From NCBI GenBank assembly GCA_964360965.1, contig CAYHYM010000002.1:30001-62000 (forward strand): a stretch of 32,000 nt of DNA, in the 5' to 3' direction. The DNA comes from an uncultured Gammaproteobacteria bacterium (GTDB taxonomy: Bacteria; Patescibacteriota; Microgenomatia; Daviesbacterales; UBA10151). Every line of letters starts with the position of its first letter. Position 1 is the first letter of the stretch. The position numbers and the translations under genes are program-made. Shown piece by piece: positions 4,198 to 20,246 of this stretch. The notes under the pieces were generated by a model, which searched no databases, was not told the origin of the DNA, and was given only the letters and a program-made list of their open reading frames with translations.

Positions 4198-4268
4198 GTC
4201 ATCCCTGCGAAGGCAGGGATCCAATTAACTATTTCTGCTAATTAGATTCCCGCATATGCGGGAGTGAC
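4198..4268. repeat. 71-bp MITE/REP-like element made of two GC-rich hairpins with inverted GTCAYYCC termini
   Basis: Left arm GTCATCCCTGCGAAGGCAGGGATC has stem ATCCCTGC/GCAGGGAT. Right arm GATTCCCGCATATGCGGGAGTGAC contains the perfect 16-nt palindrome TCCCGCATATGCGGGA. The reverse complement of the right arm resembles the left arm. Confidence 0.6.
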
Positions 4269-4297
4269 ACTGGGAAGAACTGAACTCATACAAACTA

Positions 4298-4331
4298 CCC
4301 TATTGACAAAGGTGTAAGTAAAGTATTATTT
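4298..4331 (+). promoter_or_regulatory. sigma70-like promoter upstream of pyrF
   Basis: CCCTATTGACAAA (-35 TTGACA at 4303-4308) with T/A-rich -10 candidates (TATTAT/TTATTT) 15-17 nt downstream. The identical 13-mer CCCTATTGACAAA recurs at 17693-17705. Confidence 0.5.
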
Positions 4332-4354
4332 TAAGAAACAACTGCTCCAAGATA

Positions 4355-5242
4355 ATGGCTGAGAGAATATACAACGAACTCTTTGATCAACAGCACGCTC
4401 TTCGAAAACATACCTGTGTTGGCTTAGATACTAATGACGAAGTTGTTCAACAAATGGTGGAGGGTGGCCTTGAACTAGAAGGAGATACTCCAGGTGAGCT
4501 AGTAGTTGCTTATAACACCATGGTGCTCGAGGAAACTGCCGATATAGCTGGAATATATAAACCTAATTTACAATTTTACTTAGGGTTAGGATATGAGGCG
4601 ATAACTACCTTAAAACAAACCTTCCAAAAAGCTCACTCTATTGCTCCCGAAGTTCCCATAGTTTTAGATGCTAAATTTCAGGATATTGATTCTACTAATA
4701 ACGGTTCAATGAAACTTCTAAAATTCCTAGAAGCAGATGGGGCAACTTTGCATGTTTATTTAGGTAGCCAGGCTAGCAGCCCATTTCTAGATGTAAAAAA
4801 TATGGGATTCTTTGCTTTAGATAGAACTTCTAATCCAGGAGCTGGTGAGTTTCAAGATTTATGGGTAGCTACTAATCAGGGAGAGCCAGCAACAAAAAAA
4901 CTATATGAAGTGGCGGCTGAGATTATTCATGAGAAATGGAACCGTAATGGCAACTGCGGTTTGGTAGCTGGAGCCACTTATCCAGATGAAGCTGGAATAA
5001 TTAGAAATATTGTTGGATCAGATCTGATGGTGCTATTCCCGGGTGTAGGCACTCAAGGTGGTACAGCACCTGAAATAGTTCTCCAGGCACTTAGAAGAGG
5101 TCAAAAGGGAGTTGTCAATGCTTCCCGATCTACCATATTTGCTGCAAGGTTGGAAGGGGAAACCCAAAGACAGGCCATTAGAAGAGCTGCTTTTAAACTT
5201 CACGATGAAATATTTGATACTCAAGAGCAATTAGCAGCATAA
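4355..5242 (+). CDS. pyrF: orotidine 5'-phosphate decarboxylase (long, type 2 form)
   Basis: 295 aa with VGLD, the DAKFQDIDSTN (DxKxxDIxxT) motif and the C-terminal PGVGTQGG phosphate-binding motif. Followed immediately by pyrE. Confidence 0.85.
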   Translation: MAERIYNELFDQQHALRKHTCVGLDTNDEVVQQMVEGGLELEGDTPGELVVAYNTMVLEETADIAGIYKPNLQFYLGLGYEAITTLKQTFQKAHSIAPEVPIVLDAKFQDIDSTNNGSMKLLKFLEADGATLHVYLGSQASSPFLDVKNMGFFALDRTSNPGAGEFQDLWVATNQGEPATKKLYEVAAEIIHEKWNRNGNCGLVAGATYPDEAGIIRNIVGSDLMVLFPGVGTQGGTAPEIVLQALRRGQKGVVNASRSTIFAARLEGETQRQAIRRAAFKLHDEIFDTQEQLAA

Positions 5243-5243
5243 G

Positions 5244-5897
5244 ATGGCAGCTGAAGCAGAAAGAACAAGTCAAATCCTTTTGGACATTGGGGCTGTGACC
5301 CTTAATTTAGAAAATCCTTACACTTATGTATCTGCAATCAGAAGCCCTGTTTATACTGATTGCCGTCTCTTAATGGGTTATCCTCAGGAAAGAAGAACCA
5401 TTGCTCACTTACTTGCTGAAAAGATAGCTCAAACAGGAAATTTTGATGTTATTGCTGGCACAGCCACAGCTGGTATACCCCATGCTGCTTGGGTATCAGA
5501 AAGATTAGGCAAACCCATGGTTTATGTTAGAAGTGAAGCTAAAGGTCATGGCAAACAAAACCAGATTGAGGGTCCAACCATATCTGATGGTCAAAAAGTA
5601 GCTGTGGTAGAAGATTTAATATCTACAGGTAGTAGCTCTATCGCAACCGTTGAAGCTCTCAGAGAAGCCGGAGCAACAGTTGATTTTATCTTTGCCATTA
5701 TGACTTATGGGATGGCTAAAGCTGATGAAAATTTTGCCAAGACTAGGGTTAGACCAATTGTTTTAGCCACCTTTGAAGATCTAGTCACAAAAGCAGCAGC
5801 CATAGGACAAATTAATGATAGCCAAAGAGAGGTTATTTTAGACTGGACTAAAGATACTGCTGGTTGGTGGAATAGAGTTCAAGGTCAAACTACCTAA
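5244..5897 (+). CDS. pyrE: orotate phosphoribosyltransferase
   Basis: 217 aa with the PRPP-binding motif VAVVEDLISTGSSS and overall OPRTase layout. Starts 1 nt after the pyrF stop. Confidence 0.9.
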   Translation: MAAEAERTSQILLDIGAVTLNLENPYTYVSAIRSPVYTDCRLLMGYPQERRTIAHLLAEKIAQTGNFDVIAGTATAGIPHAAWVSERLGKPMVYVRSEAKGHGKQNQIEGPTISDGQKVAVVEDLISTGSSSIATVEALREAGATVDFIFAIMTYGMAKADENFAKTRVRPIVLATFEDLVTKAAAIGQINDSQREVILDWTKDTAGWWNRVQGQTT

Positions 5898-6697
5898 AGT
5901 AGGTCTGTTAAAGGGGTGGCCATATTCCATAAAGTTTCAAAAATTGTTTTTTGCATATTAGCAAAATTTTCACCTTCTATTTCAAACCCATTAATCTCTC
6001 GATCATGCAAATATAGTTCAGCAAAGATATTGTCATAGATAAAAGTTTCTCCTTTAATCCAAACATGCTGTTGGTCTATCCCTCTGATAGAAGTGGGGAG
6101 TGTTCTGCCAATTGATGTACCAGCATATTTTCTGACTGACTCTAAAAGATGTTCTCTGGGGTTAACTAACACTCTCTCTTTAATCTGTCTTTGTTTTGAT
6201 TCACTAACAAAGCTTTTATAAAAGTTAATCCCCACATAACTACCCCTACCCCAAGCACTATAAACTAAAACTGTCTCCTTGGTACTTAAAGTATTCCATA
6301 GAAGCTGTCTTGCTCCTGAAACCCCTTTATAGTAACGGACAGTGGCTGGTTGAGGCCTTTTATTTCCGGGTAAGGATTCAATCACACTTTCCAAATGATC
6401 TAGTTTATCCATCTGGGTTTGCAGCTCAATCAATTTTTCCCTTAAAGTGTGCTTCATAGAACTTAGGGGGTAAGGATTAATCCTGACAAAGTTGTCTTCT
6501 ACAATTCTTTCCACCAATCCCAGTTGTAGGAGAATTTTTAAACTATCTGCCACAGTGGTTCTGGGGATACTTGCTAAGTTAGCAATTTCTTGAATTCTTA
6601 AAGAGCCGTGTTGGATTAAAGTTAGATATATTAAAACTTGATTTTCAGATAAGCCAAATCTTTTTAGCTCGTTTTTGACCTCTTTTAAATTTGCCAT
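5894..6697 (-). CDS. TrmB-family transcriptional regulator
   Basis: 267 aa. N-terminal winged HTH (LSENQVLIYLTLIQHGSLRIQEIANLASIPRTTVADSLKILLQLGLVERI) plus a C-terminal effector-type domain. Divergent from the pyrD-like gene. Confidence 0.75.
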   Translation of the reverse strand: MANLKEVKNELKRFGLSENQVLIYLTLIQHGSLRIQEIANLASIPRTTVADSLKILLQLGLVERIVEDNFVRINPYPLSSMKHTLREKLIELQTQMDKLDHLESVIESLPGNKRPQPATVRYYKGVSGARQLLWNTLSTKETVLVYSAWGRGSYVGINFYKSFVSESKQRQIKERVLVNPREHLLESVRKYAGTSIGRTLPTSIRGIDQQHVWIKGETFIYDNIFAELYLHDREINGFEIEGENFANMQKTIFETLWNMATPLTDLL

Positions 6698-7997: not shown

Positions 7998-8294
7998 TTA
8001 TCTAGGTATAAAATGTAGCTCTACTTTCATTCCTATAGCATTGGCTAATCTTTTAATTAAAGATAGAGATGGGCTGGCATTAGCATTCTCTAACCTAGAA
8101 ATAACAGCCTGTCCTGTTCCCATTCTTCTAGCTAACTCCTCTTGACTAATTTTTTTCTTAACTCTGGCATCAATCATAGCTTGGATGATAGTAAATTCTG
8201 GCTGCAAATCTTCATAAGCCTTTTTAGCTCCTTTAGTAGATAAGAGTAGTTTTTTGAGTTCCTCAACCGTATAATATTTAGGTGTTTTTTTCAT
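7998..8294 (-). CDS. higA: HigA-like antitoxin (XRE-family HTH)
   Basis: 98 aa with HTH ISQEELARRMGTGQAVISRLENANASPSLSLIKRLANAIG. Has a 4-nt overlap with the upstream toxin gene. Confidence 0.8.
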   Translation of the reverse strand: MKKTPKYYTVEELKKLLLSTKGAKKAYEDLQPEFTIIQAMIDARVKKKISQEELARRMGTGQAVISRLENANASPSLSLIKRLANAIGMKVELHFIPR

Positions 8295-8593
8295 AATTGA
8301 TACTCCTTAAGACGCTTCCTAGCTGTTTCTATTTCCTTTTTAGGGATCTTCTGACTCTTCTTTTTAAAACCATTTACTACAACCATTGTTGTACCTACTT
8401 TACCTATGAGCAATCTAATATCACCTGGCCTTAACTCCCATAAATTATTTTCTATCTTTTTTAAATATTGTCCTGGTAAATTAAATCCATTTTTCTCAAA
8501 CAACTCAATATACCCTTGGGCCCGACCTTGATCTGCTTCAACACAAGAATCTAGAAACTTTTTGACTCGTCCATCAGTGATTACTGTCAACAT
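8291..8593 (-). CDS. higB: HigB/Gp49-like (RelE superfamily) toxin
   Basis: 100 aa. The LWELRPGDIRLLIG...VVVNGFKKKSQKIP pattern is typical of phage Gp49-like/HigB toxins. Toxin-first gene order, as in higBA. Confidence 0.75.
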   Translation of the reverse strand: MLTVITDGRVKKFLDSCVEADQGRAQGYIELFEKNGFNLPGQYLKKIENNLWELRPGDIRLLIGKVGTTMVVVNGFKKKSQKIPKKEIETARKRLKEYQL

Positions 8594-14942: not shown

Positions 14943-16772
14943 TTAGACTTTAAGATCACCATAACGAGCGTAAATATGACCTCTATGTCCAATTGCTTCC
15001 ACCAGACAGTTGTTACCACCCAAAGGATTGTAAACTATTCTAAAATCACCTACTCTATCAACTAATCTTTTACCACCGGACCACTCAATCATTTTAGGTC
15101 GAACTTGACCTAAGGCAAACATCCTGATATGCTCACTCATTTTATCAACATCTTTTGGCCTGGGATGTCCCCCCATTAGTTCAGTCAGTGAGAATCTGGA
15201 AGAATTTATAACATGATATTTAGGTTCTGGCAACTCTGTTGTATTAACTGGTTTAGGCCCAGCCAAATATTGAGCTATAGGAGTGAACACTTTACTCACC
15301 TTATGATGCTCCCTCTTTGGAAATGGTAACCTAATAGGCTCTTGCCAAACAGCTTCTTGATCTACTTGAGCAGGTTGAACTTCTGCTTGTTCCACTCTGC
15401 GATAATCAGACAATCTGATTGGTTCCCGATTGGGATGCATTTTTCTGGCTTCTTCTAATATGGGAGGCAAGATATCGGAAAATACTGCTTTGATAAAATG
15501 TTCGTGATCTACTACAAGTTTGGCTGGCATTCCATAAAATTTACCATTCTGACCAATTTCTAAAGTAAGATGAGTTTCATCATCAGCAAAATGCAAAATA
15601 AGGACAAGAGTTTGTTTGTTTTGGCAAGTCAAAGTTATATTAGTTACAACATGACCTTCCGGCATTTTAAAATTTAGTTGTCTGTGAGGTGAACGCATCA
15701 CATCAGAATATAAATCCTTAAAATAGAAATCTATCAATCTATCAATTAAATTATCCGAATTATTATAAAGACCTTCAAGTTCTGTATCTGTCAGCTTATT
15801 TTTACCATAAAATTGAGCAAATTGATCTAGAGCCCGACCATCCGTTTTTTCATCATAATGTTGGTATTTTTCTAAATTAGCAGGTAAAGTTTTTTCTCTA
15901 TATGCCTCTTTGGCCCCCATCTCCATTGTTTCTAATATCCCGCTGTTTCTCCAGAAGAATGGGGAAAAGGAAGTTTCTACCCTGGTTTGAAAAAGCTTGA
16001 TGGCAGATGAAGGTGTAATGCCAAGCCTTCCTGGCATGTATATGCCCAAAGCCAGTGGCAATCCTGGCTCGGTGTAGGCTAAAGTTTTACGAAAGGAGAA
16101 CTCATCCTTAAGACCCATATCAAAGTTAACCATTAAATCTTTATAGTAGTCAAAGTAAGCGACCAGCCTATTATGCAAAGGATGTAAGGAGGGGAAAACT
16201 AAATTTTTCTGCTCGGGCCTGGCAAATTCTTGTGTTGCCAAATAGATCATGGCCTGGAGCATAACCGGAGATCTTCCAGCATGAAACATCCGATTTATTC
16301 TTCTGATACCTTCTGTGGGAAGGGGCAGGGACATTTGCTCTATATCAAAAAAAGAAGTTCCTTCAGAAGTTATTAAACCCAAAAAATTACTGCCACCTAA
16401 TTCTTGAGAATAAAAATCCTGCTCTTTGAATCTTTTGATTGCTGATTGGGGAAGAGTAACTAAACCTTTGTTTTCTGTTTGAGCCCGCTCCAAAAATATG
16501 GACAGTCCTCTTCTAACTTCCAGCCAGCGGCTTATAAAAGGTTTACCCCTATAAATAACTTTAGTGGGTTGGTGATCTTGTTCGTCAACAATCTGATTCC
16601 ATTCATCTATAGTTTCACCTAATAAATTATAATGTCTATTGTATTGCCCAGCTAAAGCCTGTGCTGAAGATGAATTTGATGACCTATTTTTGCGTCTGTC
16701 GGCACGGTTACCTAGCCCAACTTGAGGCTGGGTTTCTTGTTGGCCAGGTTGTATTTCCCTTCTGTCAAACAT
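14943..16772 (-). CDS. large protein of unknown function with C-terminal RelE/ParE-like toxin domain
   Basis: 609 aa from the ATG at 16772, which is 4 nt after the rpmB stop. The ORF-track start at 16787 is a TTG inside rpmB. The C-terminal ~74 aa (14943-15167) read HPRPKDVDKMSEHIRMFALGQVRPKMIEWSGGKRLVDRVGDFRIVYNPLGGNNCLVEAIGHRGHIY. This matches the RelE/ParE signature (RVGDYRIIY ... IGHRxxIY). The N-terminal ~535 aa match nothing I recognise. Confidence 0.7.
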   Translation of the reverse strand: MFDRREIQPGQQETQPQVGLGNRADRRKNRSSNSSSAQALAGQYNRHYNLLGETIDEWNQIVDEQDHQPTKVIYRGKPFISRWLEVRRGLSIFLERAQTENKGLVTLPQSAIKRFKEQDFYSQELGGSNFLGLITSEGTSFFDIEQMSLPLPTEGIRRINRMFHAGRSPVMLQAMIYLATQEFARPEQKNLVFPSLHPLHNRLVAYFDYYKDLMVNFDMGLKDEFSFRKTLAYTEPGLPLALGIYMPGRLGITPSSAIKLFQTRVETSFSPFFWRNSGILETMEMGAKEAYREKTLPANLEKYQHYDEKTDGRALDQFAQFYGKNKLTDTELEGLYNNSDNLIDRLIDFYFKDLYSDVMRSPHRQLNFKMPEGHVVTNITLTCQNKQTLVLILHFADDETHLTLEIGQNGKFYGMPAKLVVDHEHFIKAVFSDILPPILEEARKMHPNREPIRLSDYRRVEQAEVQPAQVDQEAVWQEPIRLPFPKREHHKVSKVFTPIAQYLAGPKPVNTTELPEPKYHVINSSRFSLTELMGGHPRPKDVDKMSEHIRMFALGQVRPKMIEWSGGKRLVDRVGDFRIVYNPLGGNNCLVEAIGHRGHIYARYGDLKV

Positions 16773-16776
16773 TTTA

Positions 16777-17010
16777 TTAGGCAACAACCGAAGCTTCAGT
16801 TACTTCGGGTCTCTTATATGGGGCTTTCACAATCCTTAAACACTTAGTACAATATTTTTTACCTTTATATACATGCAAATTAGGTTTTTGGACTCTTTTG
16901 TGAATAGGCGCTCTTAGAGCCCACACACCTCCTGCTCCTGAGGATCCTTTTTTATGCCTGGAGAAAGAGATCATGTTCTTACCTTTACCACAACGGTAAC
17001 AGATTAACAT
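16777..17010 (-). CDS. rpmB: 50S ribosomal protein L28
   Basis: 77 aa with C-x-x-CGKG near the N-terminus. SRHKKGSSGAGGVWALRAPIHKRVQKPNLH resembles the Thermus-type L28 segment [28 protein letters not shown]. Followed by CTKCLR. Confidence 0.75.
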   Translation of the reverse strand: MLICYRCGKGKNMISFSRHKKGSSGAGGVWALRAPIHKRVQKPNLHVYKGKKYCTKCLRIVKAPYKRPEVTEASVVA

Positions 17011-17011
17011 A

Positions 17012-17026
17012 TGGTAGAATTATATC
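17012..17026 (+). promoter_or_regulatory. extended -10 promoter giving a leaderless site-2 protease mRNA
   Basis: TGgTAGAAT at 17012-17020, then 6 nt (TATATC), then the ATG at 17027. There is no room for an SD. The same TGGTAGAAT box occurs at 17998-18006. Confidence 0.5.
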
Positions 17027-18017: not shown

Positions 18018-18092
18018 GCCTCCTTAGCTCAATGGTAGAGCAACGGTTCTGTAAACCGTCGACGACAGTTCGATTTCTGTCAGGAGGCTCCA
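18018..18092 (+). tRNA. tRNA-Thr (anticodon UGU by hand fold), CCA encoded
   Basis: Acceptor GCCTCCT/AGGAGGC, D arm GCTC-AATGGTA-GAGC, anticodon arm ACGGT-TCTGTAA-ACCGT, T arm GACAG/CTGTC. Atypical features: C at position 33 and an apparent 8-nt T loop (TTCGATTT). Confidence 0.65.
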
Positions 18093-18117
18093 TGTTTACA
18101 GTGAGCGAAGCCGAACT

Positions 18118-18189
18118 GCCGACATAGCTTAGTGGCAAAGCACTTCATTGGTAATGAAGAGAGCGCGGGTTCGATCCCCGCTGTCGGCT
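18118..18189 (+). tRNA. tRNA-Thr (anticodon GGU), no encoded CCA
   Basis: Acceptor GCCGACA/TGTCGGC, D arm GCTT-AGTGGCA-AAGC, anticodon arm CTTCA-TTGGTAA-TGAAG, T arm GCGGG-TTCGATC-CCCGC. Confidence 0.9.
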
Positions 18190-18224
18190 CTGGATTTACT
18201 TAAGACTGAAGACTTAATACAAAA

Positions 18225-18581
18225 ATGGCATTCAGATTTAGGAATTTTCCGATTTATGAGGATATACGTTCGTTCATTAAAGATATCTATCAATTGGCTA
18301 ATAAGCTACCAAAACAGGAACAATTTGAACTAGCTTCTCAATTAAGGCGCGCAGCTACCTCTATATTACTTAATCTAGCAGAAGGTTCTATGAAAAGATC
18401 TGATGCGGAGTTTAATCGTTTTCTAATGATCTCAGTGGGTTCAGTAAGCGAAATTGTAGCTATTTTAGACGTTTGTTTTGACCTGGATTATATTAGTGCT
18501 CCAACACATCAACAATTTATGCTAAAATGTGAATCTATTGCTAAAAGACTCTATGGTTTTAGTAGAAGATTAAAATCTTAA
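18225..18581 (+). CDS. four-helix-bundle protein (23S rRNA intervening-sequence protein / Avd-like family)
   Basis: 118 aa. FRNFPIYEDIRSFIKDIYQLANKLPKQEQFELASQLRRAATSILLNLAEGS...FLMISVGSVSEI is the characteristic pattern of this family. Confidence 0.85.
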   Translation: MAFRFRNFPIYEDIRSFIKDIYQLANKLPKQEQFELASQLRRAATSILLNLAEGSMKRSDAEFNRFLMISVGSVSEIVAILDVCFDLDYISAPTHQQFMLKCESIAKRLYGFSRRLKS

Positions 18582-18614: not shown

Positions 18615-18788
18615 ATGGCTAAAAAGGGAAATAGACAATTAATATCTTTTCAATGTTCTGAATGTAAAAACAGGAATTATACCTCATCAAAAAACACTAT
18701 CAATAGCAAAGATCGTCTTACTTTGAACAAATTTTGTAAACATTGCAGAAAGCATACAGAGCACCAAGAGGTCAAAATAGGCAAATAA
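18615..18788 (+). CDS. rpmG: 50S ribosomal protein L33
   Basis: Not in the ORF track (57 aa). Hand translation: MAKKGNRQLISFQCSECKNRNYTSSKNTINSKDRLTLNKFCKHCRKHTEHQEVKIGK, with the CxxC...CxxC zinc ribbon and the L33 pattern. Confidence 0.9.
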   Translation: MAKKGNRQLISFQCSECKNRNYTSSKNTINSKDRLTLNKFCKHCRKHTEHQEVKIGK

Positions 18789-18866: not shown

Positions 18867-19526
18867 ATGCCCTATTCCATAGATACTAAAGAAAAAGCAA
18901 TATCCCTTCGAAAACAGGGATACTCCATAAAAGAAGTTGCAGCACTACTCAATATAGCACAAAGCACATCTTCTTTATGGTTAAGGGAGATAATACTTTC
19001 ACCTCAAGCACAAGATCGCCTCAGAGATAGGAAAATTCTAGGGCAATATAAAGCTATTGAAACTCATAGAAAAAAGAGGTTATCTGTAATAAATGGATTC
19101 CATAAAATAGCTCTGGATGAATTATCAAAGGTTAAATTTAATAAAGCTATATATAAACTTTTGTGTGCGCTCTTTTTCTGGACAGAGGGAGGGAGATCAA
19201 CAGATAGCTATGTATATTTTATTAACTCTGATCCTGTTATGGTAAAAACTTTTGTCAAACTTCTTCATCTGTCTTTCCCTATTGAAGAAAGAAAACTGCG
19301 TGCTATGGTCCAAATACACGAGTATCATAACGATGTCGATACCAAGAAATTTTGGTCAGAAATAACACAAATTCCTGTTGGTCAATTCTCTAAAAGTTAT
19401 TTAAAACCTCATACAGGAAAAAGGATTAGAGACGGATACCAAGGAAGTATAAGAATAAGATATTACGATTATAAGATTGCATTAGAACTACGCGCATTCT
19501 ATAATGTGTTGGCTCAAATAATATAG
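18867..19526 (+). CDS. HTH plus LAGLIDADG-like (single-motif) putative homing endonuclease
   Basis: 219 aa from the ATG at 18867. N-terminal resolvase-type HTH (LRKQGYSIKEVAALLNIAQSTSSLWL). Central LLCALFFWTEGGRSTDSYVYFINSDPVMVKTFVKLL resembles the LAGLIDADG motif plus its following beta strand. The family call is tentative. Confidence 0.45.
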   Translation: MPYSIDTKEKAISLRKQGYSIKEVAALLNIAQSTSSLWLREIILSPQAQDRLRDRKILGQYKAIETHRKKRLSVINGFHKIALDELSKVKFNKAIYKLLCALFFWTEGGRSTDSYVYFINSDPVMVKTFVKLLHLSFPIEERKLRAMVQIHEYHNDVDTKKFWSEITQIPVGQFSKSYLKPHTGKRIRDGYQGSIRIRYYDYKIALELRAFYNVLAQII

Positions 19527-19597
19527 GGGTGTAGCTCAGTTGGTAGAGCACTCGTCTCCAAAACGAGCGGTCGTAGGTTCGACTCCTACCGCCCCTG
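19525..19597 (+). tRNA. tRNA-Trp (anticodon CCA), no encoded CCA end
   Basis: Acceptor AGGGGTG/CGCCCCT, D arm GCTC-AGTTGGTA-GAGC, anticodon arm CTCGT-CTCCAAA-ACGAG, T arm GTAGG-TTCGACT-CCTAC. Overlaps the TAG stop of the upstream ORF by 2 nt. Confidence 0.9.
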
Positions 19598-19619
19598 CAA
19601 AATCTATCTATACAATGTA

Positions 19620-19654: not shown

Positions 19655-19957
19655 GTGGCTTTTGGTATTAAGTTTAATGAGGAAAAAAATGAATTACTGA
19701 AAGCTACAAGAAAAGTTAGTTTTGAGGATGTCTTGGAGGCTTTCAAGGAAGAGAAACTGTTAGCTGATATTGCTCACCCAAGTCAAAAGCATCCTCATCA
19801 GAAATTATATGTAATAGAAATTAAAGGGTATGCATATGCAGTTCCCTATGTTTTAGATACTAGAAAACAAGAAATATTTTTGAAAACAGTCTATCCAAGT
19901 AGAACGTTGACAAAAATATATTTGAAAGGTGAAAAGTATGAAAAAAAGAAAAAGTAA
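19655..19957 (+). CDS. brnT: BrnT-like (DUF497) toxin
   Basis: 100 aa. FNEEKNELLKATRKVSFEDVLEAF parallels the BrnT WDxxKxxxNxxKHGVSFEEA N-terminus. Followed by an overlapping BrnA-like gene. The GTG start is uncertain. Confidence 0.65.
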   Translation: MAFGIKFNEEKNELLKATRKVSFEDVLEAFKEEKLLADIAHPSQKHPHQKLYVIEIKGYAYAVPYVLDTRKQEIFLKTVYPSRTLTKIYLKGEKYEKKKK

Positions 19958-20246
19958 TCTTTTTGATAATTTGCTTTTAGATAAGCAAGAAAAACTACTG
20001 GAAGAATCCTTGGAAAGAGGCGAATTTGAGGACAGTCCTAATTTTGAAAATACTAAGAGAATGTTGCAGGAAGCGGCAACCCGGTATTCGGAGTTGCATA
20101 CTTCCAAACCAGTTACACTTAGGATCAACCAACTTGATTTAATTAAAATTAAAGCCAAAGCCAAACGAAAACAAATCCCCTATCAAACGCTGATCGGGGC
20201 TTTACTTCATGAGTATGCTGTAGGAGAAAAAGATTTAAGTCTATAA
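19938..20246 (+). CDS. brnA: BrnA-like antitoxin (C-terminal ribbon-helix-helix)
   Basis: KPVTLRINQLDLIKIKAKAKRKQIPYQTLIGALLHEYAVGE is the typical BrnA/CopG C-terminus. The ATG at 19938 overlaps the brnT end. Confidence 0.75.
   Translation: MKKRKSNLFDNLLLDKQEKLLEESLERGEFEDSPNFENTKRMLQEAATRYSELHTSKPVTLRINQLDLIKIKAKAKRKQIPYQTLIGALLHEYAVGEKDLSL

Follow-up and report, generated by a model that had tools for sequence, protein, structure and literature searches.

A candidate regulator–RelE fusion protein encoded behind a probable L28 gene in Daviesbacteria-like bacteria

A stretch of 32,000 nucleotides from an uncultured groundwater bacterium of the Daviesbacteria group, contig CAYHYM010000002.1 (positions 30,001 to 62,000; hereafter the window, in whose own numbering all coordinates are given) carries on its minus strand, at 14943–16772, a gene for a 609-residue protein in which a RelE-type domain sits at the very C-terminus of a much larger polypeptide. 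Its predicted structure and its sequence profiles place this C-terminal domain in the RelE/ParE superfamily, nearer to RelE and HigB than to ParE. The ~445 residues at the N-terminal end have neither a sequence match nor a fold match; the earlier note on this DNA, made from its letters alone, had likewise been able to assign nothing there. The reading we favour, to which we would give slightly less than an even chance, is that the protein is an accessory, fast-evolving, single-gene fusion of a regulator to RelE, self-inhibited in cis and found in Daviesbacteria-like members of the candidate phyla radiation (CPR).

Known RelE relatives cut mRNA on the ribosome. By analogy with RelE, HigB and Cami1, the C-terminal ~85 residues would form a RelE-type endoribonuclease domain that enters the ribosomal A site, cuts the mRNA and halts translation; the N-terminal ~445 residues, together with a linker that contains a short helix, would keep the nuclease inactive in cis until a signal, such as a phage protein or a stress cue, sets it free. 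We propose control in cis because there is no antitoxin gene and only the same polypeptide is conserved with the RelE domain, and it seems the simplest reading because a free RelE-type nuclease would be expected to harm the cell. Nuclease activity, dependence on the ribosome and autoinhibition by the N-terminal domain are all argued here from analogy.

The RelE-type domain and the protein that carries it

The C-terminal domain comprises residues 518–609 (14946–15221, minus strand), with a core at residues 518–601 (14970–15221), and is recognised by AlphaFold2, Foldseek and sequence profiles. It is predicted to have a β-α-α-β4 topology, in which a strand is followed by two helices and a four-stranded meander (residues ~518–601), and a model of the domain by itself has a predicted local distance difference test score (pLDDT) of 91.7, with a strand at domain positions 9–11, helices at 15–22 and 28–42, and four strands. 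The earlier note had placed a RelE/ParE signature in the last ~74 residues; the domain is real by fold and by profile, but it extends beyond those residues, over ~518–601.

Foldseek searches of the domain model against the PDB put RelE1, RelE, RelE2 and HigB on top, with probabilities of 0.97–1.0 and template modelling (TM) scores of 0.50–0.67, which bears out the suspicion of a RelE/ParE fold. The leading matches are Mycobacterium tuberculosis RelE1 (9g12; probability 1.00, TM 0.56/0.64), T. thermophilus RelE (2khe; probability 1.00, TM 0.62/0.67), HigB (5ycl and 6kml; both 0.99) and RelE2 (3g5o; 0.97), with M. jannaschii RelE also among them, all within a range of E-values of 0.016–0.06 for the domain. 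Cami1 (8phb) appears with a probability of 0.72, its chains standing at ranks 13, 27 and 37, and ParE entries (8c24, 6x0a and 3kxe; 0.5–0.8) rank below RelE and HigB, as do those of BrnT. When the full-length model is used as the query, RelE1 and RelE2 are the only confident matches.

Sequence comparisons point in the same direction at lower strength. The Pfam family PF05016 (ParE_toxin) matches the last ~38 residues of the protein at E 0.0086 and 17.1 bits (model positions 53–89), and 13 of 35 family members at E ≤ 0.1, the best at E 1.3e-5, so that on profile scores the relation of the family as a whole to PF05016 is remote. A profile of the C-terminal 98 residues gives ten weak matches among PDB sequences, the largest group being RelE-type toxins, which also take first and second rank. 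T. thermophilus RelE leads (2khe, E 0.023), and M. tuberculosis Rv2866 and RelE1, P. horikoshii aRelE and M. jannaschii RelE3 are included, while the non-RelE items, a Rad50 fragment and YefM antitoxins, lie at E 0.3–1.2. The PHROGs family “RelE-like toxin” matches the 609-residue protein at E 0.039. When the domain profile was used in a word-index search, a single fragment came back, and it was uninformative. We make the RelE assignment because several independent signals, each weak to moderate, agree.

The most conserved positions of the domain, counted over 123 family C-terminal domains, are R578, R597, G555, E553, G575, R573 and Y601. R578 (15039–15041), which pairs with R61 of E. coli RelE, is kept in 122 of the 123; R597 (14982–14984), equivalent to RelE R81, is arginine in 114 and lysine in eight; and Y601 (14970–14972), equivalent to RelE Y87, is tyrosine in 68 and phenylalanine in 16. 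R573 (15054–15056) pairs with RelE R56. These equivalences come from hmmalign with E. coli RelE, and an alignment with M. tuberculosis RelE1 has the same RRGDYR...ARRSASY pattern. Two of the RelE residues, R61 and R81, belong to its active site (PMC3482391). The conservation pattern suggests that the C-terminal domain is probably catalytically competent.

The rest of the chain is formed by a tail, a large domain and a linker. Residues 1–39 (16656–16772, minus strand) are a polar and basic tail of low confidence (pLDDT 41–68), in which the motif N22-R-x-x-R26-R27 is conserved, R26 and R27 being nearly invariant in the family. The N-terminal domain (residues 40–445; 15438–16655, minus strand) is modelled mostly at pLDDT above 90 and appears to consist largely of helices, to which residues 366–407 add a four-stranded sheet. 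Its conserved motifs are DIExM, RINRMF, YFDYY, ARLGITPSSAIKL, YQHYD and THLTLE; the polar residues E145, D208 (in YFDYY), S256 and K259 (in LGITPSSAIKL), and H401 and E405 (in THLTLE) are invariant or nearly so, with D208, S256, K259, E405 and G414 as the invariants. Pfam searches of this region in 23 members gave scattered single matches and no CARF domain, NCBIfam, PADLOC and PHROGs gave no match, a profile of the region had no relevant match among PDB sequences, and Foldseek against the PDB and BFVD returned low-probability, helical-repeat noise only.

The linker (residues 446–517; 15222–15437, minus strand) is mostly disordered, with pLDDT 42–64 over residues 451–500 and 85 over 501–510, and is the least conserved region of the protein (19% mean pairwise identity). 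It nevertheless holds a short conserved helix, F496-TPIAQY-L503 (15264–15287), just ahead of the RelE domain, and its LTPxxxxL motif is also present in a distant relative at locus L017 (loci are cited by our own handles). The full-length AlphaFold2 model has a pLDDT of 85.2 and a predicted TM score (pTM) of 0.83; because this pTM is near the ceiling for a chain with ~90 of 609 residues disordered, the model suggests a compact two-domain protein whose N- and C-terminal domains are held in a fixed mutual arrangement.

The family, its divergence and its place in the genome

A search of 5.8 billion proteins found 42 full-length homologues of 550–668 residues, 27–73% identical to the window protein, which come from independent assemblies and align colinearly from end to end; none of the 42 carries a precomputed Pfam domain. 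When 1.84 billion cluster representatives were searched exhaustively with a profile of the first 450 residues, only 143 proteins or clusters were recovered, nearly all of 550–680 residues, the shorter ones resembling fragments at contig ends. The N-terminal domain is confined to the ~600-residue architecture in that collection and occurs in no other. Among the 125 representatives of at least 540 residues, 113 end in the same C-terminal domain, 11 in a variant domain and one is truncated. The fusion is thus conserved, as the earlier note had left to be checked, and an artefact of frameshift or assembly joining two genes is rejected on the colinear homologues from independent assemblies and the 113 of 125 with the same C-terminal domain. 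Literature searches found no published description of the family.

The 11 members with the variant C-terminus, which are divergent (P0037, P0042, P0055, P0090, P0099, P0103, P0110, P0120, P0129, P0131 and P0134; alignment A5) conserve SFRGD...LRxVYY...H..F and have weak matches to YoeB and HigB (E 0.3–0.8); by hhalign, their similarity to the main type is not significant. They may represent another branch of the RelE superfamily on the same scaffold.

Family members are found in Daviesbacteria-like and Microgenomates assemblies, and the nearest relatives of the window itself are metagenome-assembled genomes of Candidatus Daviesbacteria and Microgenomates. Two metagenome-assembled genomes with family members, L010 (CAYUJR010000007.1) and L012 (CAZDTO010000082.1), are titled “uncultured Gammaproteobacteria bacterium”, a title that is probably a placeholder or an error, because the family otherwise occurs in Daviesbacteria and Microgenomates assemblies.

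The gene diverges faster than its surroundings. Between the window and L005, the M50 peptidase is 82% identical, L28 72%, def 63% and fmt 53%, against 29% for the 609-residue protein; across loci the protein is 29–55% identical, versus 50–82% for the neighbours. Within the protein, mean pairwise identity is 32% for the N-terminal and 28% for the C-terminal domain.

The open reading frame spans 14943–16787 on the minus strand and would encode 614 residues if translation began at a TTG; beginning at the ATG at 16772 gives 609. This ATG is the likely start, because homologues begin at the equivalent methionine (MLDRRE... in the alignment with 41 homologues), and the complete coding sequence, 609 codons plus the stop at 14943–14945, then occupies 14943–16772. 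The stop codon TAA of the upstream gene (16777–16779) is followed by a four-nucleotide spacer, TAAA (16773–16776, minus strand), and then by this ATG, so the position first read for the start, 4 nucleotides past the rpmB stop and on the same strand, is borne out. Simple scans of the minus strand found no terminator-like or promoter-like site at this junction, and co-transcription with rpmB is plausible.

The upstream gene (16777–17010, minus strand) encodes a 77-residue protein, probably bL28 in the long-loop, CxxC...CxxC zinc-ribbon form, on a weak profile and on conservation. It has no Pfam match at E ≤ 1, and its sole NCBIfam match is TIGR00009 (L28) at E 2.7 and 8.5 bits, against a cut-off of 48.3. 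The only PDB match of a profile built from three orthologues is D. radiodurans L28 (E 0.056), with which the protein aligns in register over 44 residues, including GGV...KRVQxxNLH. The protein is 65–84% identical across genomes and forms 323 clusters at 90% identity; most of its homologues are annotated as hypothetical, and one JGI record reads “ribosomal protein L28”. We therefore treat it as likely to be L28, on weak statistics. Gene callers missed the corresponding gene in L001 (5737–5973) and L003 (5752–5988).

On the other side, rpmB (minus strand) and the M50 peptidase gene (plus strand) stand back to back, with their starts 16 nucleotides apart. A −10-like TATAAT lies 7 nucleotides ahead of the ATG of the 77-residue gene, and the spacer (17011–17026) has this TATAAT and, on the other strand, a TAGAAT, each 6–7 nucleotides before an ATG. 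It resembles a minimal promoter, leaderless and working in both directions, in which the −35 region for each direction would fall within the opposite gene.

The absence of a Shine–Dalgarno (SD) site before the 609-residue gene had been taken as a sign of translational coupling to L28, an argument that fails when all 30 gene starts in the window are considered (for example 17010 on the minus strand and 17027, 13345 and 21249 on the plus strand). SD-like tetramers occur at 4 of the 30, as at random (11% expected), and a −10-like TANNNT hexamer ending 3–12 nucleotides before the ATG is found at 17 of the 30, versus 23% at random positions. The genome seems, on these motifs, to rely mostly on leaderless mRNAs. 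Because it barely uses SD sites, a missing one is uninformative about coupling to rpmB; family members that do not directly follow rpmB (for example L005, L007 and L008) have a −10-like box of their own.

The adjacency to L28 holds for this gene, which does directly follow a likely L28, but the linkage is kept in only about half of the members. The family gene comes straight after L28, with gaps of 4–111 nucleotides, in the window, L001, L003, L008, L018 and L024. In L005 a methyltransferase gene lies between the two, in L006 the family gene follows a gene for a 197-residue unknown and not L28, in L007 it lies between ychF and rpsF-ssb-rpsR, in L010 between glyA and a region leading to rpsB-tsf, and in L019, L020 and L022 it is away from L28. 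A comparison of about 13 distinct contexts, in which the upstream neighbour is L28, a methyltransferase, the 197-residue unknown, ychF or glyA and the downstream neighbour is fmt, PIN, a sigma-like gene, a hydrolase or rpsF, shows no gene, antitoxin-sized or other, that is conserved on either side. The lack of an adjacent antitoxin frame, first read from the window, thus extends to the contexts of homologues.

The site between rpmB and fmt is itself variable. In six other Daviesbacteria loci, anchored on the L28 protein, this slot contains no detectable family member (0 of 6): it is empty in L015 and L026, and holds a secreted GH5-like protein in L014, a 527-residue unknown in L016, a 136-residue unknown in L025 and, in L017, a 683-residue protein encoded on the opposite strand (4260–6311, minus strand). 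The last ~125 residues of the L017 protein, comprising an LTPLQQVL linker motif and a RelE-like module, align to the family (hhalign probability 88%, E 3e-6; tblastn E 0.002), and its N-terminal ~550 residues do not, being unrelated or beyond detection. Extra genes occur in the slot elsewhere, namely a VapBC pair in L003, two unknowns in L001 and a sigma-like gene in L008. The content of the rpmB–fmt slot thus varies between genomes, with the family gene as accessory cargo. The link to L28 is one of position and not of function; the gene most likely came to lie behind rpmB by being inserted into this variable slot, with read-through from rpmB.

The window has a G+C content of ~38%, and its genes include def, fmt, the M50 peptidase, L33, a Wzy_C/TPR protein and a 23S-rRNA-IVP protein. 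Two tRNA-Thr genes, the free-standing IVP gene (PF05635, E 4e-30), rpmG (L33) and tRNA-Trp are clustered at 18018–18190, 18225–18581, 18615–18788 and 19525–19598. Genes of the IVP family also flank the family gene in L005.

Weighing the readings

An accessory role, or one in biological conflict, is favoured by the patchy distribution of the family, the variable slot, the fast divergence and the sister protein of L017 with its different N-terminus. Several observations weigh against a self-inhibited regulator–RelE fusion. At the level of the domain, no Foldseek match reaches E ≤ 0.001, and the Pfam score lies under the ParE_toxin gathering threshold (17.1 versus 23 bits). Over the 123 domains, the positions that correspond to RelE K52 and K54 vary, the aligned columns being R569 (leucine, arginine or valine in the family) and V571 (glutamate, arginine or valine). 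The window copy has alanine at residue 553 (15114–15116), within the FExG motif with which helix 2 ends, where 112 of the 123 relatives, among them the 73%-identical P0002, have glutamate. At the level of the family, the N- and C-terminal domains diverge at similar rates, so there is no sign of a specially fast-evolving sensor; PADLOC has no match for the gene, no defence island is recognisable, and most contexts are housekeeping neighbourhoods. Phage, plasmid and IMG/VR collections hold no relatives of the protein, and an origin on a mobile element is rejected on that result.

A more specific form of the fusion reading, which we regard as possible but on balance doubtful, gives the N-terminal domain a definite task. 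It would be a sensor with a new fold that directly recognises a protein of a phage or of a host cell and releases the RelE nuclease, making the gene a hitherto unrecognised, CPR-specific, single-protein abortive-infection system in a variable rpmB–fmt hotspot. That hotspot would be shared with at least one sister family, represented by L017, in which another N-terminal sensor would be joined to the same linker–RelE module.

Unlikely, in our estimate, is a housekeeping role, in which the N-terminal domain and the basic tail would dock a ribosome-associated endonuclease onto the ribosome, for normal mRNA decay or to free stalled ribosomes, in a lineage whose set of RNases is reduced, and in which the gene would be co-expressed with L28. 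The close position behind rpmB in six genomes, at a distance of 4–27 nucleotides, agrees with this, as do the copies beside other translation genes (ychF with rpsF-ssb-rpsR, and rpsB-tsf), the conserved basic NRxxRR motif near the N-terminus and the lack of a defence-system signature in PADLOC. A housekeeping gene, however, sits poorly with an absence from the syntenic slot in 6 of 6 other Daviesbacteria sampled, two of whose slots are empty, with 143 family clusters against 323 (at 90% identity) for L28, and with a divergence far above that of the housekeeping neighbours.

We consider it equally improbable that the RelE fold serves here as a non-nuclease module that binds RNA or the ribosome, in a protein with some other regulatory or structural role. 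The unconserved K52 and K54 equivalents, the alanine at 553 in place of a near-invariant glutamate and the sub-threshold Pfam score would fit such a loss of catalysis, and the N-terminal invariants D208, S256, K259, H401 and E405 could form an active or binding site of their own. R578, R597 and Y601 are nevertheless the most conserved positions of the C-terminal domain, and members of the RelE family (YoeB, HigB, YafQ) vary widely in their other catalytic residues.

The protein might also be an effector, exported or delivered by contact in the manner of a polymorphic toxin, with which an episymbiotic CPR cell would act on its host or its competitors and for which the N-terminal domain would provide delivery; we hold this to be decidedly improbable. 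The C-terminal position of the toxin domain, the 11 of 125 members that share the N-terminal scaffold but end in another C-terminal domain, and the listing of RelE among polymorphic toxin domains (PMC3482391) speak for it. The sequence, however, has no signal peptide or transmembrane segment, Pfam finds no module of the RHS, filamentous-haemagglutinin, LXG, WXG or PAAR type, no immunity gene lies downstream in any context examined, and a classical RelE domain was met only once in polymorphic toxins (PMC3482391).

Very improbable is a ParE-like domain that poisons DNA gyrase instead of cutting mRNA: ParE_toxin is the sole Pfam family matched and ParE structures (8c24, 6x0a and 3kxe) are among the fold matches, but the PF05016 model spans RelE-like and ParE-like sequences alike, RelE and HigB structures outrank every ParE entry with higher probabilities, and the RxGDYR...R...Y pattern aligns with the catalytic residues of RelE. 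A two-gene toxin–antitoxin pair, with the 77-residue zinc-ribbon protein as the antitoxin, is largely refuted and hardly credible: a small gene immediately upstream is the usual antitoxin–toxin order and this protein misses the Pfam and TIGRFAM thresholds for L28, but it is highly conserved in genomes without the family gene, the family gene also occurs without it, it is in register with D. radiodurans L28, and it is 65–84% identical where the 609-residue protein is 29–55% identical.

Comparison with known systems

The earlier note knew of no described architecture of this kind, but precedents exist in Cami1 (PMC11229360), CapRel (PMC9712102) and EzeT (PMC4826407). The closest in layout is Cami1 of type III CRISPR systems (PDB 8phb and 8phj), an effector in which CARF is fused to RelE (PMC11229360): like the 609-residue protein, it has an N-terminal regulatory or sensor part (proposed in our case), a C-terminal RelE-family domain and no antitoxin. 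Unlike Cami1, the 609-residue protein has no CARF or other known sensor domain, its N-terminal domain is larger (~445 residues) and without a known fold, and no cas or CRISPR genes are found among the called genes of the family loci examined.

A translation-targeting toxin and an autoinhibitory or sensor domain share one polypeptide in CapRel, a phage-defence protein that has no separate antitoxin gene (PMC9712102). We propose the same logic for the 609-residue protein, whose autoinhibition and role in defence would follow by analogy; the toxin of CapRel, however, is a RelA/SpoT-type tRNA pyrophosphokinase and not of the RelE type, and the domain order is reversed, the toxin being N-terminal in CapRel and C-terminal here. 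EzeT is a precedent in which a single polypeptide unites, by covalent linkage, a type II toxin with its antitoxin (PMC4826407). Its toxin is a zeta kinase, of a different family from RelE, and its N-terminal antitoxin-like domain is small and recognisable, unlike the N-terminal domain of the 609-residue protein.

Canonical type II toxins are stand-alone proteins of ~85–100 residues with an adjacent antitoxin gene. With RelBE and HigBA the family shares the toxin fold and the equivalents of R61, R81 and Y87, but the RelE domain forms only the last 15% of the 609-residue protein and no antitoxin gene is conserved. The window itself also holds two ordinary small pairs of the RelE superfamily: a Gp49/HigB-like toxin with an HTH_3 antitoxin (7998–8593, minus strand), and a weakly BrnT-like toxin with a CopG/BrnA-like antitoxin (19655–20246, plus strand). 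Polymorphic toxins can carry a RelE-type RNase at the C-terminus of a large protein (PMC3482391); these Tox-RelE proteins have secretion, RHS or HINT modules and immunity genes, none of which is seen at the family loci.

The 609-residue gene thus lacks the defining features of a type II toxin–antitoxin system (no antitoxin), of Cami1 (no CARF or CRISPR) and of a polymorphic toxin (no trafficking module or immunity gene). Its architecture, with a conserved fusion, no partner gene and a predicted pTM of 0.83, is compatible with a fused, single-chain toxin–antitoxin. The concept has precedents, and what is new is an N-terminal domain without detectable relatives on RelE.

The negative results matter as well, the link to L28 being a position in a variable slot and the missing SD site a property of the whole genome. 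CPR bacteria cannot yet be grown alone, and their systems for defence and stress have hardly been explored; should the N-terminal domain indeed be a sensor, it would be one with a new fold, and a family of one gene would offer a simple test case for translation toxins regulated in cis. RelE toxins are textbook examples of small two-gene modules, and their wiring to sensor domains, as in Cami1, was found only recently. The family described here would be a second, independent way of placing a RelE nuclease under the proposed control of a large domain to which it is fused.

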